This document shows, piece by piece, positions 695 to 54,446 of a stretch of DNA of 64,000 bases. The translations under genes and the position numbers were made by a program. This DNA is from Thermoanaerobaculia bacterium (GTDB taxonomy: Bacteria > Acidobacteriota > Thermoanaerobaculia > UBA5066), in the NCBI GenBank assembly GCA_963719225.1, contig CAVRAY010000001.1, positions 3,424,001-3,488,000 on the forward strand, given 5' to 3'. The notes under the pieces were generated by a model that saw only the letters and a program-made list of their open reading frames with translations, was not told the origin of the DNA and did no database searches. Within the stretch, counting starts at the first letter, position 1, and every line of letters begins with the position of its first letter.

Positions 695-1876
695 TCAGAC
701 GGCCACGCCGCCCAGCGCGAGCAGGCGCCGGGCATGGGCGTCGGGCCCGAACGAGGCTCTCAGGTGCGCCGCGCCGGCCGCGAGGCGAGGTCCGAGCCCC
801 TCGCGCACGAAGCGCGCCATCGCGCGCGTGAGGGCGGGCGCATCTCCGGGCGGCACGAGAAGGCCGCTGTGCCCGTCCTCGATGATGTCCATGAGGCCCT
901 CGACCGCCGTCCCGATGACGGGGCGGCCGTACGCGAGGGCGTCGGCCGCGATACCGGAGCCCGTCGCGTGCCGGTACGGGCACACGACGGCGTCCGCGGC
1001 CGCGAACCACAGCCCGCGCTCTTTCTCGGACAGGTAGCGGAGCTCGAGACGGACGCCGGCCGGCGCCCATGCCTCGAGACGGCGCGCCTTGCCCCAGGGC
1101 TCCCCGGCGAGGACGAGCAGGGCCGATGGGATCTCTTGCCTCAGCGCCGCGAATGCGTCGAGAAGAATGTCCCAGCCCTTGTACGGCCTGAGGAGGCCGC
1201 TGAAGAGGAAGACGGGCGCGTCCGGCGGGAGGCCGAGATGGCCGCGGGCGTCGTCGCGGTCGGGCAGGACGGCGCGCGGCTCAGCCGGGTGCGGCACGAT
1301 CGCAACGGGCGCGTCCGGGCGCTCGCCGGAGATCTCGCGCGCGCTGCGCGCGTTCTGCGCGGCGAAACGATCCGCGCGGCGGAGGACGGCCCGCGTGAGG
1401 GCGTCCTTGAGGGGATGCGACTCGTGGTCGAAGACGTTGTGGCAGAGGAGGAGTCGTACGGCGGAGGGCCGCTCGGCGCCGAGGGTGGACAGGAACAGAG
1501 ACGCGTGCGCCGCGAAATACGCCGTCCACCAGGGAAGGATCACGAGAGAAACTTCTTTGAAGGAAAGATAGCGGGCCGCTCTCACGAACGAGAAAGGGTT
1601 CAACCCGTCGAGAAGCGCGGCGGCCTCTCCCAATCGAGAGCCGCGCGCCGAACCGCCGGCGTCACCCTCTTCACCTTCTAGGAAGTCTTTCTTCTCTTCT
1701 TCCGAATAGTCCGTCGTCCCCGGATAAAGAAAACGCGGATACATCCGCGAGAAGCCGACGACGAGAGGCTCGATGCCCAACCGCCGCATCGCGCGCAGGA
1801 GACGCGCGTCCTGGTCGGCGATCCCGCTGCGCCAGGGCGGGAAAGGCCCGACGAGCGCGACGACGGGAGGTGTCAT
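695..1876 (-). CDS. Glycosyltransferase family 4 (GT-B)
   Basis: N-terminal VGPFPPWRSGIA; C-terminal FSGLLRPYKG, PYRHATGSG, DALAYGRPVIGTAVEG; ATG overlaps the upstream gene's stop. Confidence 0.9.
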   Translation of the reverse strand: MTPPVVALVGPFPPWRSGIADQDARLLRAMRRLGIEPLVVGFSRMYPRFLYPGTTDYSEEEKKDFLEGEEGDAGGSARGSRLGEAAALLDGLNPFSFVRAARYLSFKEVSLVILPWWTAYFAAHASLFLSTLGAERPSAVRLLLCHNVFDHESHPLKDALTRAVLRRADRFAAQNARSAREISGERPDAPVAIVPHPAEPRAVLPDRDDARGHLGLPPDAPVFLFSGLLRPYKGWDILLDAFAALRQEIPSALLVLAGEPWGKARRLEAWAPAGVRLELRYLSEKERGLWFAAADAVVCPYRHATGSGIAADALAYGRPVIGTAVEGLMDIIEDGHSGLLVPPGDAPALTRAMARFVREGLGPRLAAGAAHLRASFGPDAHARRLLALGGVAV

Positions 1877-3060
1877 GCGGACAAGAGGAACGCCTTGAGG
1901 TATTCCCCCTCGGGGCAGTCGATCGAGACGGGATGGTCGGGACCGGCGCCGCGTTTCTCGAGGAGCCGCGCCGGACGGCGTGCGTCGAGGGCGGCCGCGA
2001 AGATCACTTTCTGGAAGAGGTCGGGCGAGACGCGACCCGAGCACGAGCACGCGAGAAGGAGTCCGCCGGGCGCGAGGAGCTGGAACGCGAGCCGGTTGAT
2101 GTCCTTGTAACCACGGCATGCCTTCTCGACGTCCGCCTTTCTCTTCGCGAACGCAGGCGGGTCCGTCACGATGAAGTCCCAGCGTTCCCCGGCCGCGACC
2201 CGGACCCTGAGGTCGTCGAAGACGTCGGCTTCCCGCAGCTCGACGCGCGATCCGGGCCCCACGACGGCCTGAGCGTTGAGAACGTGGTTCTCGCGCGCGA
2301 GCTGGAGCGCGGCGCCGGATGAGTCGACGTGGACGACGCGCGACGCGCCGCCCGCGAGCGCGGCCACACCGAAAGCGCCCGAATACGAGAACAGGTTGAG
2401 GATGCTCCGGCCCGCCGCGTGGGAACGCACGAGAAAACGATTTTCGCGCTGATCGAGGAAAAAGCCCGTCTTTTGGCCCGCGGAAATCTCCGCCACGAAG
2501 GCGAGGCCCCGCTCGCGGAACCTCGCCCGCCGGGGGCTCGTGTCGCCCGCGAGCAGTTCGTCATCGAGCGGGAGCCCTTCTCCCTGACGCGAAGGCAAAT
2601 CGTTCTTCTGGACGACCGTCGTCCCGGGGAAGGACGCGAGGATCGGAGGAAGCCAGAGCGGGCGAGCGCGCTCGGTGCCCTCGGTCGTGGCCTGCACCAC
2701 GAGGGCTCCGCCGTACCGGTCCGCGACGAGGCCGGGCAGGAAATCGCCCTCCGCATTCACGACGCGGTAGCCGTCGGTCTCGGGCGGGACGACGCGCTCC
2801 CTCAGAGCCACCGATTCGCGGACGCGCTGCGAGACGAAATCGGCGTCGAGCGGCCGGTCCTCGAACGTCCAGAAACGGGCCACGATCGACGCTGCCGGCG
2901 ACGCGAATCCGCGTGCCAGGAATGTCCCCGAAGCGTCCCGCGCCTCGACGGTGCCGTCGGTCGAGGCGCCGTCCTGTCGCGCGACCGCTCCCGAAAAAAG
3001 CCACGGGTGACGCCTTCGCGTCGCCGCACCGCGGCCCTTGACAAGATGGAGCGTCTTCAC
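1873..3060 (-). CDS. rlmI: RlmI/RlmK-type 23S rRNA SAM-dependent methyltransferase
   Basis: RRRHPWLFSG PUA-like start, NAEGDFLPGLVADRY, GQKTGFFLDQRENR, LNLFSYSGAF, DPPAF, CSCS, GPDHP, EGEYLK. Confidence 0.88.
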   Translation of the reverse strand: MKTLHLVKGRGAATRRRHPWLFSGAVARQDGASTDGTVEARDASGTFLARGFASPAASIVARFWTFEDRPLDADFVSQRVRESVALRERVVPPETDGYRVVNAEGDFLPGLVADRYGGALVVQATTEGTERARPLWLPPILASFPGTTVVQKNDLPSRQGEGLPLDDELLAGDTSPRRARFRERGLAFVAEISAGQKTGFFLDQRENRFLVRSHAAGRSILNLFSYSGAFGVAALAGGASRVVHVDSSGAALQLARENHVLNAQAVVGPGSRVELREADVFDDLRVRVAAGERWDFIVTDPPAFAKRKADVEKACRGYKDINRLAFQLLAPGGLLLACSCSGRVSPDLFQKVIFAAALDARRPARLLEKRGAGPDHPVSIDCPEGEYLKAFLLSA

Positions 3061-52320: not shown

Positions 52321-54446
52321 GCGTTCGCCCCGAGCTCGCGGTCGAGGTCGTCCTCGGTCCACACGGCGACGCCCAGCGATTTCGCCTTGTCGAGCTTGCT
52401 TCCCGGCTCCTCGCCGGCGATGACCGCCGTCGTCTTCTTCGACACGCTTCCACTCACCTTTCCACCGGCCGATTCGATCGCGGCCGTGGCCTCCTCGCGA
52501 GACCGCCTCGGCAGCGTCCCCGTGAGGACGAAGACTCCCCCGGACAGGGATCCACCCCCCGCGGACGAAACCGGGCTCTCCGTCATACGGATGCCGGCGG
52601 CCCTGAGTTTCGAGAGGAGAGCGCGATTCGGGCTCCGGGCGAACCAGTCGAGGATGCCGCGGGCCGTTTCGGGACCGATCTCGGAGACGGACGTCAACGC
52701 CTCCTCGTCGGCCGCTTCGAGAGCTTCGATCGACGTAAAACGCCGCGCGAGGAGCTTCGCCGTCTTTTCCCCGACCTGCCGGATTCCGAGGCCGTACAGG
52801 AGCCGGGCCAGGCCGGCGTCCTTCGACTTCTCGATCTCGGCGATGACGTTCGCGGCCGACTTCTCGCCCCAGCGCTCGAGCGGCGCGAGCTGCTCCTTCG
52901 AGAGCGCGTAGAGAGAGGAGACGTCCCGAAGGAGGCCCGCGCCGAGGAGCTGGTCGATGCGCTCGTCTCCGAGGCCCTCGACGTCGAGAGCGCGCCGCGA
53001 GACGAAGTGCCGGATGGCCTCCTGTACCTGCGCGGGACAGGACGCGTTCACGCAGCGCACCGCCACCTCGCCCTCCTGCCGAACCACCTTTTCGCCGCAG
53101 GCCGGACAGCGCTTCGGCATCGCGAAGGGCGGCGCGCCTTTCGGCCGCTTCTCGAGGAGGACGCGCGTCACTTGCGGAATCACGTCGCCCGCTTTCTCGA
53201 CCGCCACCGTATCGCCGACGCGCACGTCCTTGCGCGCGAGGTCCATGTGATTGTGGAGCGTCGCGCGCTTGACGACCGTGCCGGCGAGAAGGACGGGCGT
53301 GAACTCCGCGACGGGCGTGAGGACGCCGGTGCGGCCCACCTGGACGCGGATGTTCGTCACGACCGTCGTGGCTTCCTCGGGTGGGAACTTGTACGCGAGC
53401 GCCCAGCGCGGCGCTTTCGCGGTCTGGCCGAGGCGCCTCTGATCGGGGATGGAATCCACCTTCAGGACCACGCCGTCCGTCTCGAACGGCAGGTCGTGGC
53501 GTTTCGAACGCCATTCGTCGAGGAAGGCGAGGATCCCCTCCACGTCGGAGAGGACGGCGCGGTGGGGGTTGACCGGAAGAGAGAATTCTTCGAGGGCGGA
53601 AAGACTTTCGCTCTGGAGCGACGGTGCCCCTTCTCCCTCCCAGCGCGCGATCGAATAGAGGAACGCGGACAGCTTCCGTTGGGCCGTGATCCGGGCATCG
53701 AGAAGCCGCAGCGACCCCGCCGCCGCGTTTCGGGGATTCGCAAAAAGAGGTAACCCCGCCTCCTCGCGCGCCGCATTCAGCGCCGTGAAGGACTTCTTCG
53801 GAAAATAGACCTCGCCGCGGACTTCCAGGAGCCGTGGAATGCGGAGCAGGCCGGAGGGTCGTTTTTCTTCGAATGGTGAAGAGCCCGCCTTCGCTCCAGC
53901 GGCTGCCGCGCGAGAAGGCGGCCGCCCAGCCCCATGTACCTTCGAAGAAATCTGTATTGCCAGCGGGACAGCGTGAATCGTCCTCACGTTCGGCGTGACG
54001 TCCTCGCCGGTCGTCCCGTCGCCGCGCGTCGCGGCGCGCACGAGGACTCCGTTCTCGTAGACGAGGGAGACCGAGAGCCCGTCGATCTTCAGCTCGCACA
54101 CGAAGGCCGGCATGCGTCCGAGGCGGTCGTTCACGCGCTTCAGCCACGCCTCCAGCTCCTCGCGGTTGTAGGCGTTGTCGAGGGAGAGCAGCGGGATTTC
54201 GTGCCGCACGTTCGGCAGATCGGAGACGGGCGCGCCGCCCACGCGCTGCGTCGGCGAGTCCGGCGTGACGAGCTCGGGATGCTCGGCTTCCAGCGCCTTC
54301 AGCTCGCGCACGAGCGCGTCGTACGCGGCGTCCGTGATCTCGGGCCGGGCTTCCGTATGGTAGAGGCGATCGTGCCGCCGGATCTCGTCGCGAAGCTCCG
54401 CCGCGCGCGCCGCCTGCTCGTTTCGTTTCGGGCCGGGCCTCGCCAT
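52317..54446 (-). CDS. ligA: NAD-dependent DNA ligase
   Basis: [52 protein letters not shown], Cys4 zinc finger, BRCT. Confidence 0.97.

Follow-up and report, generated by a model that had tools for sequence, protein, structure and literature searches.

The window, a stretch of 64,000 nucleotides from a Thermoanaerobaculia bacterium, contains a GT4 glycosyltransferase gene, rsmH, tilS, an FtsH-like gene, folP and ligA, and a recurrent motif lies within and between these genes (Table 1). The first-pass annotation had described a 20-bp motif. All nine words that it listed were found where, and on the strands on which, it had placed them. The recurrence thus stood, but the unit was revised: it is an asymmetric arm of ~30 bp, captured as a PWM, and the arms form outward-facing inverted pairs. 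The proposed core, TTC-N3-GAA, is not a signal on its own, as the window holds 29 of these, about half of them unrelated to the motif. Using the PWM, 16 sites in the window scored >14 bits and 13 scored >20 bits; 30 dinucleotide shuffles gave 0.23 and 0.03, respectively.

Table 1. Motif arms in the window and the genes that carry them. Scores are PWM bits.
Feature	Position	Strand	Details
GT4 glycosyltransferase gene	695-1876	-	Pfam PF13692/PF00534
Arm (centre 1557)	1543..1572	-	21.5 bits; left of 123-bp pair in GT4 glycosyltransferase gene
Arm (centre 1680)	1665..1694	+	27.3 bits; right of GT4 pair
Arm (centre 7837)	7823..7852	-	25.7 bits; on conserved rsmH codons EDLLRRLG
Arm (centre 7975)	7960..7989	+	31.6 bits; partner 138 bp away; variable rsmH loop HLLRNL
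Single arm, intergenic	10671..10700	+	19.6 bits
Arm in tilS (PF01171)	20360..20389	-	22.3 bits; outer extra minus arm of 20632/20716 pair
Arm, intergenic	20618..20647	-	32.1 bits; left of 84-bp pair
Arm	20701..20730	+	22.0 bits; right of 84-bp pair
Arm	24722..24751	-	33.2 bits; left of 68-bp intergenic pair after FtsH-like gene
Arm	24789..24818	+	26.0 bits; right of 68-bp pair
Arm in folP (PF00809)	39864..39893	-	22.7 bits; left of 47-bp pair
Arm in folP	39910..39939	+	26.2 bits; right of 47-bp pair
Weak third arm in folP	40107..40136	+	9.9 bits; 244 bp from minus arm
Single weak arm, coding	47201..47230	-	16.1 bits
Weak extra minus arm in ligA	53576..53605	-	16.3 bits
Arm in ligA (PF01653)	53855..53884	-	21.8 bits; left of 76-bp pair
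Arm in ligA	53930..53959	+	28.3 bits; right of 76-bp pair

The left arm of rsmH lies on the same codon in 17/17 genus orthologues; the right arm is present in 16/17, at a position that varies from 96 to 174 bp, and is duplicated in two. At these two arms, the GC content of third codon positions falls from ~0.9 to 0.35 and 0.21. The folP genes of several relatives have the same arm arrangement, and the place of the third arm scores 12-24 bits. Where the GT4 pair has its right arm, the aligned sequence of genome G007 has instead a short palindrome built from two outer halves. Most relatives lack the 68-bp pair, and G011 carries the entire element in inverted orientation; the spacer has 82% identity to a pair at C1:1,339,707 of G000.

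Genome-wide, the PWM yielded 847 matches >14 bits. A reversed-genome control gave 158 matches vs 856 real ones at >14 bits and 30 vs 649 at >20 bits; some matches of 14-18 bits are false positives. In coding DNA, 410 matches exceeded 20 bits, as compared with 14.5 ± 2.2 expected from 20 within-gene synonymous-codon shuffles; the intergenic figure was 220 vs 1.9 expected from 10 dinucleotide shuffles. Called genes hold 565 of the 847 sites, distributed over all six frames (sense 109/121/46, antisense 96/113/80), and 282 sites are intergenic. Recurrence far above chance, on either strand and in unrelated proteins, was borne out. As all six frames are occupied, no single peptide accounts for the motif, and this use of frames together with the codon-shuffle excess rules out a peptide or codon artefact as its source. 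The over-represented word CTGTGGTTCAC was traced to a coding repeat. No report of an overrepresented genome motif was found in the literature on Thermoanaerobaculia, and among the matches listed for the word TTCTAAGAA in bacterial chromosomes, none was related by title.

The arms are arranged in a strict geometry. Neighbours within 400 bp were minus-plus in 331 cases vs plus-minus in 18, with 59 and 47 on the same strand. An outward partner lies within 300 bp of 574/847 sites (68%, about two-thirds), leaving approximately one-third unpaired, and outward pairing was also seen at 88/109 GC-rich loci in other genomes. The purine arm always precedes the pyrimidine arm, on both strands. Pair spacing is mostly 65-250 bp, with a lower limit of ~65 bp for most pairs, a mode at 75-84 bp, a bump at 125-140 bp and a long tail; the peak at 93 bp (16 pairs) comes from paralogous kinase genes. 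Core variants match slightly more within pairs (score 6.48 vs 6.33 ± 0.07), which paralogous kinase genes may cause. The spacing showed no ~10.5-bp helical phasing (p 0.21 and 0.15), and sites had no positional bias along genes. Partner arms did not covary (22.89 identities of 51 vs 22.71 ± 0.22 when shuffled, 252 pairs), G:U pairs between arms were not in excess (517 vs 512 ± 15, 153 pairs), and the spacers had no secondary structure (mean z 0.15 and -0.16). Because partner likeness, G:U pairing and spacer structure are all at chance, each arm is read independently of its partner.

A strong signal characterises one genus of uncultured, GC-rich bacteria, being present in 29/29 of its genomes. 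A second genus shows the motif weakly, and the rest of the class sample, scanned with two patterns, is at background level; near relatives of the motif-rich genus live without it. It is also rare in foreign-looking DNA. As originally noted, the blocks at 11-16, 31-35.5 and 60-64 kb contain no sites, even at >6 bits. When 5-kb windows were ranked by how atypical they are, with sites masked, the top tenth held 5.3 and 2.9 sites/100 kb, as compared with ~27 and ~16 for typical windows, a density ~5x lower. Phage mimicry was rejected: of 102 viral loci with a paired pattern, two exceeded 55% GC, neither with an outward pair. The codon-shuffle excess, the use of six frames, conservation at fixed codons, the absent RNA-pairing signature and the foreign-DNA depletion bear out the suggestion of a DNA-level signal laid over coding DNA.

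Site density increases toward dif: 21.7 sites/100 kb within 0.75 Mb vs 13.3 beyond. The corresponding values were 137 vs 84 per Mb for merged clusters and 18.6 vs 7.3 sites/100 kb in conserved genes. In G028, the 1.5 Mb around dif holds 66 sites vs 53 in the remaining ~2.6 Mb, and dif has an arm within 300 bp in 8/10 genus genomes. This bias, of about 1.6-2.5x, is a slope and not a domain: sites occur chromosome-wide, and in G019 dense sites extend to ~65 kb from dnaA. Replichore polarity was absent from the pairs, which hold both orientations and do not show a KOPS/Chi/AIMS-like switch; single arms are weakly biased (52/37 vs 39/52, p 0.04). The matS, NBS, SBS and parS sites are single palindromes, present in tens of copies that are either restricted to one domain or kept out of it; parS and NBS also carry TTC...GAA halves, with N4 and not N3. 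Like the sites of matS/MatP, Noc/NBS, SlmA/SBS, parS/ParB and ZapT, the arms are position-biased and lie inside ORFs. Unlike the first four, they number ~850, are asymmetric and paired, and occur along the entire chromosome, with a ~2x gradient in density. ZapT sites, according to the part of the source available, lie near ter, for the most part within ORFs, and yielded no consensus (PMC7188993).

A nucleoid or partition protein, as first guessed, may read the motif, but no binder was identified among the candidates searched (ParB2, a ZapT-like MerR protein and HU/IHF), and the partition protein adjoining dif is common to motif-free genera. The recognition helix of this ParB2 does not differ between 8 motif-rich genomes and 11 others. 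The ZapT-like MerR protein and HU/IHF are likewise weak reader candidates, occurring in motif-free genera too. Within the 0.4-Mb dif window, G000 has 119 PWM sites but G061 and G066 have 4 and 0, respectively, and the latter two windows contain no alternative paired word. A comparison of gene content near dif did not point to a reader, the G066 window not being syntenic.

The arms are conserved, at a cost to the proteins that carry them. In 29 coding pairs compared between G000 and G007, core substitution was 6.8% vs a background of ~10%; the arm cores are under purifying selection. At ~75% DNA identity, 13/13 alignable sites were retained. Among 98 coding site-orthologue comparisons, 63 were gap-free overlays on homologous codons, 16 were insertions and 14 were partial. 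Proteins carrying arms have insertions and lower identity, and the arm-borne insertions in core proteins are E/K-rich or S/L/P-rich.

Our leading interpretation, held at slightly short of even confidence, is that the arms are predicted double-stranded binding sites that a lineage-specific protein bridges into a small loop, and that they spread by short-patch copying. Such a putative protein would bind the arms and bridge both, closing a DNA loop no shorter than ~65 bp. Folding an inverted pair into a U-turn would bring its arms alongside each other with matching direction, and bridging of this kind would account for why orientation is fixed, why spacing has a lower limit and why phasing is absent. 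Pairing geometry, arms read singly, selection on cores, the terminus slope and the exact outer-flank 16-mers common to unrelated arms (see below) speak for this interpretation. New arms may be short patches copied from old arms, in an SPDIR-like manner, and retained when they complete a pair; loss of recJ was rejected as a source of patch mutations, recJ being found in 39/41 genomes. The role would be to organise the chromosome, with emphasis on the terminus half. A fuller version, in which hundreds of paired, self-spreading loop anchors, copied between sites in short patches, are clamped into DNA U-turns by a lineage-specific protein, organise the terminus half and reshape the proteins of essential genes, is possible but doubtful. 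The lack of phasing counts against a bridged loop, as protein-bridged loops are usually phased at ~10.5 bp. The sharing of reader candidates with motif-free genera, the modest terminus slope, the third of sites that are single and the relatives that live without the motif also weigh against the leading interpretation. Moreover, the indel excess and pair turnover described below also fit a selfish or driven element.

A bipartite uptake or transfer signal, whereby machinery would grip two inverted arms and kink the DNA, and the motif, serving no purpose inside the cell, would spread by molecular drive, seems rather unlikely. It would suit a lineage-restricted, conserved, foreign-DNA-depleted motif found on both strands and in all frames. 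Further, comEC is present in 11/11 genus genomes plus G000, and one pair lies just upstream of a gene that we take to be ComEA-like. However, comEC occurs in 37/41 family genomes, so this competence gene is not specific to the motif genus, and the dif bias has no reason under drive. According to the available portions of the sources, transformation increases short-patch recombination (10.1101/2023.11.22.568220), and DUS/USS are conserved words peculiar to a lineage that overlie coding sequence in every frame, are scarce in foreign DNA and can alter proteins (PMC2817400). The motif resembles Neisseria DUS and Pasteurellaceae USS in its lineage-specific coding overlay and foreign-DNA depletion. 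Nevertheless, in the excerpts consulted, inverted repeats hold ~10% of known uptake sequences (PMC1939737) vs 68% here at long spacing, and such sequences arise by mutation and homologous recombination (PMC2817400), as compared with 16/98 insertions here. The motif is thus unlike DUS/USS in its pairing, its insertion and patch copying, its terminus bias and its 4-5x lower density (~0.18/kb vs 0.8-0.9/kb). The first-pass annotation had raised an uptake sequence; two features of these, being mostly unpaired and spreading via mutation and not insertion, fail here.

We consider unlikely a selfish, non-autonomous element in which a putative enzyme would copy arms or doublets and genes tolerate them. 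REP doublets/REPINs, MITEs and Rickettsia palindromic elements (RPE) are inverted doublets with unit gain and loss and occasional in-frame insertion, and the motif resembles them in each respect. Between G000 and G007, genomes ~91% identical, 5/49 and 3/59 anchored pairs were present whole in one and absent from the other; in two cases a pair was copied with its spacer to an unrelated locus, and the pair inverted in G011 also fits. Outer flanks fall into subfamilies, with exact 16-mers common to unrelated arms in 87 pairs vs 7-16 simulated, and a separate hairpin repeat inserts next to arms. Indels cluster at arms, with 148 breakpoints counted at 121 arms as against 13 at 150 controls, a 14x enrichment. 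On the other hand, the 63 gap-free overlays and the purifying selection on cores argue against such an element, and most spacers consist of unique native sequence, the exceptions being paralogues and a small number of copies; in some gains, empty-site DNA persists within the spacer. Target duplication and a sharp cut point were absent at the empty and filled sites compared. Joined-outer-half scars numbered 3 in 4.3 Mb, and no excision scars were found beyond these rare cases. Spacer inversion, assessed in relatives' assembled contigs only, was seen for one intergenic pair between genomes and 0/49 pairs vs G007, and no strand-changing joints were found among 15 of 91 in relatives' contigs (word share ≤0.32). 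Unlike REPIN/MITE/RPE, the interior is not conserved and coding arms mostly overlay native codons; unlike the extragenic REPIN/BIME, most sites lie in called genes. RAYT (Y1 HUH) had 0 PF01797 matches in G000 and G019 and was found in G061, G065 and G066; no reverse transcriptase (RVT_1) was found in G019 or G065 with the query used. In the Ssn nuclease system, the available part of the source describes a gene flanked by an SRM/NTS hairpin repeat (PMC11893778). Ssn was rejected, as the sole Ssn-size gene sits in the foreign portion of C2 between unrelated repeats of CGTC type.

It is quite improbable that an enzyme acting between two inverted sites (a topoisomerase, an SMC-type loader or a defence nuclease sparing marked DNA) uses the pairs for loading, cutting or self-marking, with the indels as repair scars. 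Some enzymes communicate between sites by sliding, which the fixed orientation, spacing floor and absent phasing would suit. Consistent with this, spacers (18%) and near flanks (15-19%) are more diverged than the 10% background, and two resident IS families each have one arm near an end. However, no fixed cut position was found, breakpoints being spread over ±60 bp with no peak; arms also occupy regions where outgroups, too, are variable (identity 0.50 vs 0.70, 11 genes), and none of the candidate enzymes tested positive. Finally, an RNA or single-strand hairpin acting as a terminator, Rho-site mask or stability element is very unlikely: the purine-pyrimidine order and the pairs after the FtsH-like gene, which replace the plain terminator hairpin of other relatives, suit it, but covariation, G:U excess and spacer structure are absent, 155/263 adjacent pairs fall within one gene, convergent gaps are not enriched (5/121 vs 42/648 tandem and 18/361 divergent), and Rfam matches in the window comprise one tRNA.

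Returning to the bridged-loop interpretation, two further motifs invite comparison. Copies of the HRM of Mrazek, Gaynon and Karlin (2002) reportedly have preferred spacings, inverted pairs included. The available part of PMC2526093 describes this Lactococcus lactis motif as hundreds of non-palindromic copies in genes and spacers, nearly absent from phage and transposon genes and of unknown function. The arms are likewise an abundant non-palindromic word in genes and spacers that is rare in foreign DNA; they differ from HRM in sequence, phylum, broad 65-250 bp spacing, protein insertions and a density rising toward dif. Cyanobacterial HIP1 is, in the portion of the source available, abundant, selected and overlaid on coding DNA, with function unknown and a structural role proposed (PMC5861425). 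Unlike the ~30-bp asymmetric arm, HIP1 is an 8-bp perfect palindrome with no pairing.

Sequence-encoded chromosome organisers are known so far from a handful of cultured bacteria, and several abundant motifs, such as HIP1 and HRM, have no assigned function yet. Here, the strict two-arm geometry predicts the mode of action of a reader, and the sharp lineage boundary makes the reader gene findable by comparative genomics. The motif also provides a taxon-specific binning signature. Its cost is visible, in that codons of core proteins are rewritten and stretches inserted, and it would account for odd insertions in the proteins of this genus.

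Homopolymer runs aside, the top over-represented 10-mers of C1, the contig of the source assembly that carries the window at positions 3,424,001-3,488,000, belong to a single AT-rich motif. The first-pass annotation had listed nine 20-bp copies in the window, and all nine lie where it placed them. Using an iterated position weight matrix (PWM), we found 847 sites above 14 bits in the source genome. The PWM matched 158 positions of the reversed genome versus 856 real ones at 14 bits, and 30 versus 649 at 20 bits. The codon-shuffled comparison proposed in the annotation also favored a DNA-level signal: coding sites above 20 bits numbered 410, versus 14.5 ± 2.2 after within-gene synonymous shuffling, and intergenic sites 220 versus 1.9 in the shuffled control. 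Called genes contain 565 of the 847 sites, in all six frames. The complete ~30-bp word, the arm, is asymmetric: from inner to outer end, it comprises a pyrimidine run ending in a CACC-like sequence, the core TTC(T/G/A/C)AAGAA, and A(A)TCTTC with a pyrimidine tail. Genes were called with a self-trained caller and named within the window via Pfam; the names FtsH, ccmF, RecG, LeuRS, RNase R, NuoG and ComEA, and those of insertion sequence (IS) families, are our presumptive assignments from the sequences. Another over-represented word, CTGTGGTTCAC, was ruled out as a DNA signal, as it arises from tandem protein repeats.

The arms are arranged in outward-facing pairs. Among neighbors within 400 bp in the source genome, 331 were minus-then-plus, 18 plus-then-minus, and 59 and 47 same-strand, and 574 of the 847 sites had an outward partner within 300 bp. 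Outward partners were also present at 88 of 109 GC-rich loci of other genomes and at roughly half of 30 loci of G065, from a second genus. Pair spacing is common from about 65 bp upward, most frequent at 75-84 bp, and trails off out to 300 bp, while a minority of pairs are 28-60 bp apart; the window holds six pairs (123, 138, 84, 68, 47 and 76 bp) plus extra arms. Each gene of a paralogous Ser/Thr kinase cluster contains a 93-bp pair, and kinase-like loci of G065 have the same spacing.

The distribution of the motif was evaluated using three patterns. YYTTCTAAGAAW occurred in 33-265 copies in 28/28 other genomes of the genus, g1 (controls, 0-15), and, elsewhere in the family and order, in 0-1 copies in 32 genomes. 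Across 160 class-wide genomes, a second pattern occurred 65-187 times in 10 genus genomes, 28 times in G065, and 0-7 times in the remaining 149. One negative genome in both counts, G037, is unpublished, and each negative count is one lower without it. A looser pattern matched 81-200 times in 12 genus genomes. In eight genomes of the second genus, g18, it matched 8-62 times (controls, 1-12), and in 21 other genomes 0-24 times (controls, 1-19). Thus, g1 genomes carry the motif strongly and g18 genomes weakly, and the other genomes searched show only background levels. Source records of the intact 20-mer are titled Thermoanaerobaculia or Acidobacteriota, save eight low-GC chance matches among 117 loci.

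Copies of one known overlaid motif, the Lactococcus HRM, reportedly have preferred spacings, inverted pairs among them. The arms resemble DUS/USS (PMC2817400, PMC1939737), HIP1 (PMC5861425) and HRM (PMC2526093) in being overlaid on genes, and matS or ZapT sites (ZapT: PMC7188993) in their terminus bias. However, the arms lack some tested defining features of DUS and of SRMs (PMC11893778), and likewise of matS-type sites, polar sites, REPINs and MITEs. No description of the motif was found in the literature searched; it is real, undescribed there, and kin to overlaid chromosomal motifs. A bipartite uptake signal, which would share the overlay and give the pair a role in DNA import, is unlikely given the difference from DUS.

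The arms are retained at a cost to proteins. Of 20 rsmH loci, parsing succeeded for 18, and a misread frame led to the exclusion of one of these. The left arm occupies the same codon positions in 17/17 orthologs; the right arm, 96-174 bp away, is present in 16/17 and doubled in two. Third-position GC falls from ~0.9 to 0.35 and 0.21 at the two arms. The rsmH of the genus is longer than solved homologs, with the second arm inside an insert, and is divergent: searches at 1e-30 found no counterpart in 16 genomes from other families. The source assembly (two contigs, 4.75 Mb, 68% GC) is chimeric: C2 ends in a 0.4-Mb stretch from a second, related organism, which holds a second tmRNA and matches C2:6-222 kb in inverted orientation at ~75% identity. 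Used as a relative, this part retained 13/13 alignable sites, out of 24. Between the source genome and G007 (~91% identical; 1.16 Mb compared), coding arm cores differ at 6.8% of positions versus ~10% for background; spacers diverge by 18% and near flanks by 15-19%. The 98 site comparisons with outgroup orthologs yielded 63 gap-free overlays, 16 insertions, 14 partial and five terminal cases. Amino-acid identity in the gap-free overlays was 33% versus 63% across the whole gene. In 11 genes with two outgroups each, arms lay where the outgroups already differ more (0.50 versus 0.70), and insertions specific to the source genome occupied 20% of columns at arms versus 0.5% elsewhere. Inserts are E/K-rich from purine arms and S/L/P-rich from pyrimidine arms.

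Pairs also turn over. Both arms were kept in 38 of 49 source pairs anchored in G007, one in six and none in five; conversely, among 59 of 77 G007 pairs anchored in the source genome, the counts were 43, 13 and three. Some gains at gene ends involve an entire pair, 77-149 bp in size. The DNA of the empty site persists within the spacer in several gains, which, judging from the alignments, suggests separate addition of the two arms. One window pair has unchanged orientation in G007 and G017, is inverted in G011, gives way to another pair in G019, and is missing from most other relatives; its spacer matches a pair in a presumed ccmF-like gene at 82%. A second copied pair was found (see table). 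Among the outer flanks of 622 unrelated arms, 87 pairs shared exact 16-mers and 24 shared 18-mers, versus 7-16 and 1-2, respectively, in position-specific simulations; low-complexity slippage may contribute. Such patches can be pasted by short-patch double illegitimate recombination (10.1101/2023.11.22.568220), to which arm copying may be likened by analogy. Loss of recJ, which boosts that process, was rejected, as recJ is present. A selfish arm or doublet is rather improbable: RAYT, RVT_1 and Ssn queries had no match in motif-rich G019, and in the source genome their targets were absent or confined to the foreign part of C2.

Several other repeats were observed. In 0.37 Mb of G007 sequence, at least six copies of a composite hairpin repeat (150-200 bp) are present, and the source genome has one; the repeat includes the outer half of the arm and is often inserted beside arms. 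In G003 and G016, the spot after the presumed FtsH-like gene is filled, in opposite orientations, by a REP-like family of intergenic repeats with a G-run/C-run hairpin. A nine-copy IS, presumably DDE-type, and a five-copy element, presumably IS110-like, each contain a single arm located 60-85 bp from one end. On the foreign C2 stretch, CGTC-type hairpin repeats surround an 83-aa GIY-YIG gene, together an Ssn/SRM-like unit.

Indels of at least 15 bp breaking within 60 bp numbered 148 at 121 arms versus 13 at 150 control places, and no sharp break position was found at these arms. We give little credence to an enzyme loading or cutting site, which the indel excess might recall and the diffuse breaks do not favor.

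Sites are distributed uniformly along genes, without preference for convergent or divergent gaps. Pair partners were no more similar than random partners, gene-oriented pairs had no G:U excess, and spacers folded no better than shuffled sequence. These results point to two sites separately read on double-stranded DNA; an RNA hairpin, for all the inverted layout, is scarcely credible.

Coordinates of features in the source genome unless stated (C, contig; L, fetched locus)
Feature	Coordinates	Other loci
Tandem ~42-aa repeat clusters (CTGTGGTTCAC)	C1:1,524,455-1,525,583 and four other clusters	
rsmH	window 7211-8359	
Window pair	window 24,722-24,818	
Second copied pair	C1:947,480 and C1:1,963,212	
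Ser/Thr kinase cluster	C1:2,293,327-2,320,000	
dif-like site	C1:2,037,567	
dif-linked parA-parB	C1:2,037,567-2,039,524 (L150)	L152-L169
Dyad beside dif	L150:7575 region	orthologous loci
dnaA	C2:326 kb	
parS	C2:333,826	
Foreign part of C2	C2:470,000-871,796	
83-aa GIY-YIG gene unit	L402:1328-1927 (C2:804,819)	
Composite hairpin repeat	C1:3,285,867	L352, L356, L361, L362
REP-like family	C1:44,476 and roughly a dozen further intergenic sites	L315, L316
DDE-type IS and IS110-like element (presumed)	C1:2,033,786-2,035,122 and C1:2,198,825-2,210,162	
G019 dif; dnaA	G019 C2:107,793; C2:838,918	

Our leading, still tentative, reading is that the arms are paired binding sites bridged by a putative protein across a U-turn loop. 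Folding back an inverted pair would place both arms side by side, running in one direction, and the protein would bridge them, closing the loop. This geometry would account for the fixed orientation, the ~65-bp stiffness floor, the free spacer sequence, and the independence of the arms. The absence of a 10.5-bp spacing period (p 0.21, 209 pairs; p 0.15, 285 pairs) and the weak slope toward dif count against this reading. Candidate binding proteins were sought. A second parA-parB operon adjoins dif in 19/19 family genomes fetched, and the recognition helix of its ParB differs from that of the origin ParB; the dif-linked ParB was rejected because its helix is identical in genomes with and without the motif. 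ZapT-like MerR, HU/IHF, comEC and recJ were rejected as lineage-specific factors, all being present in motif-free genera too.

Chromosome position was evaluated without the foreign part of C2. The dif-like site lies close to the GC-skew turn. On C1, counts per 250 kb of sites of at least 18 bits climb from 16-17 in the opening part of the contig to 62-67 around dif, then drop to 15-23 at the far end. Density was 21.7 per 100 kb within 0.75 Mb of dif versus 13.3 outside (Spearman -0.22), and merged clusters numbered 137 versus 84 per Mb. Conserved genes, by differing definitions, had 18.6 sites per 100 kb near dif versus 7.3 near ori. The most atypical stretches had about five times fewer sites, and the rRNA region none. 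In G028, 66 exact sites lay in the 1.5 Mb around dif versus 53 in the remaining ~2.6 Mb; the dif contig of G019 had 41 in its first 0.8 Mb versus 15 in the following 1.0 Mb. In that 3.9-Mb genome, dnaA is 0.73 Mb from dif, so the dense sites come near the origin; this closeness is a large inversion or misassembly. In 8/10 genus genomes, which as kin are not independent, dif has an arm within 300 bp, with varying placement. Most of 21 family genomes share a conserved ~15-bp dyad (CC..A...TT.GG) ~16 bases beyond the right arm of dif; it may be an accessory Xer or ParB2 site. The bias toward dif suggests that the motif has a role in organizing the terminus half of the chromosome.
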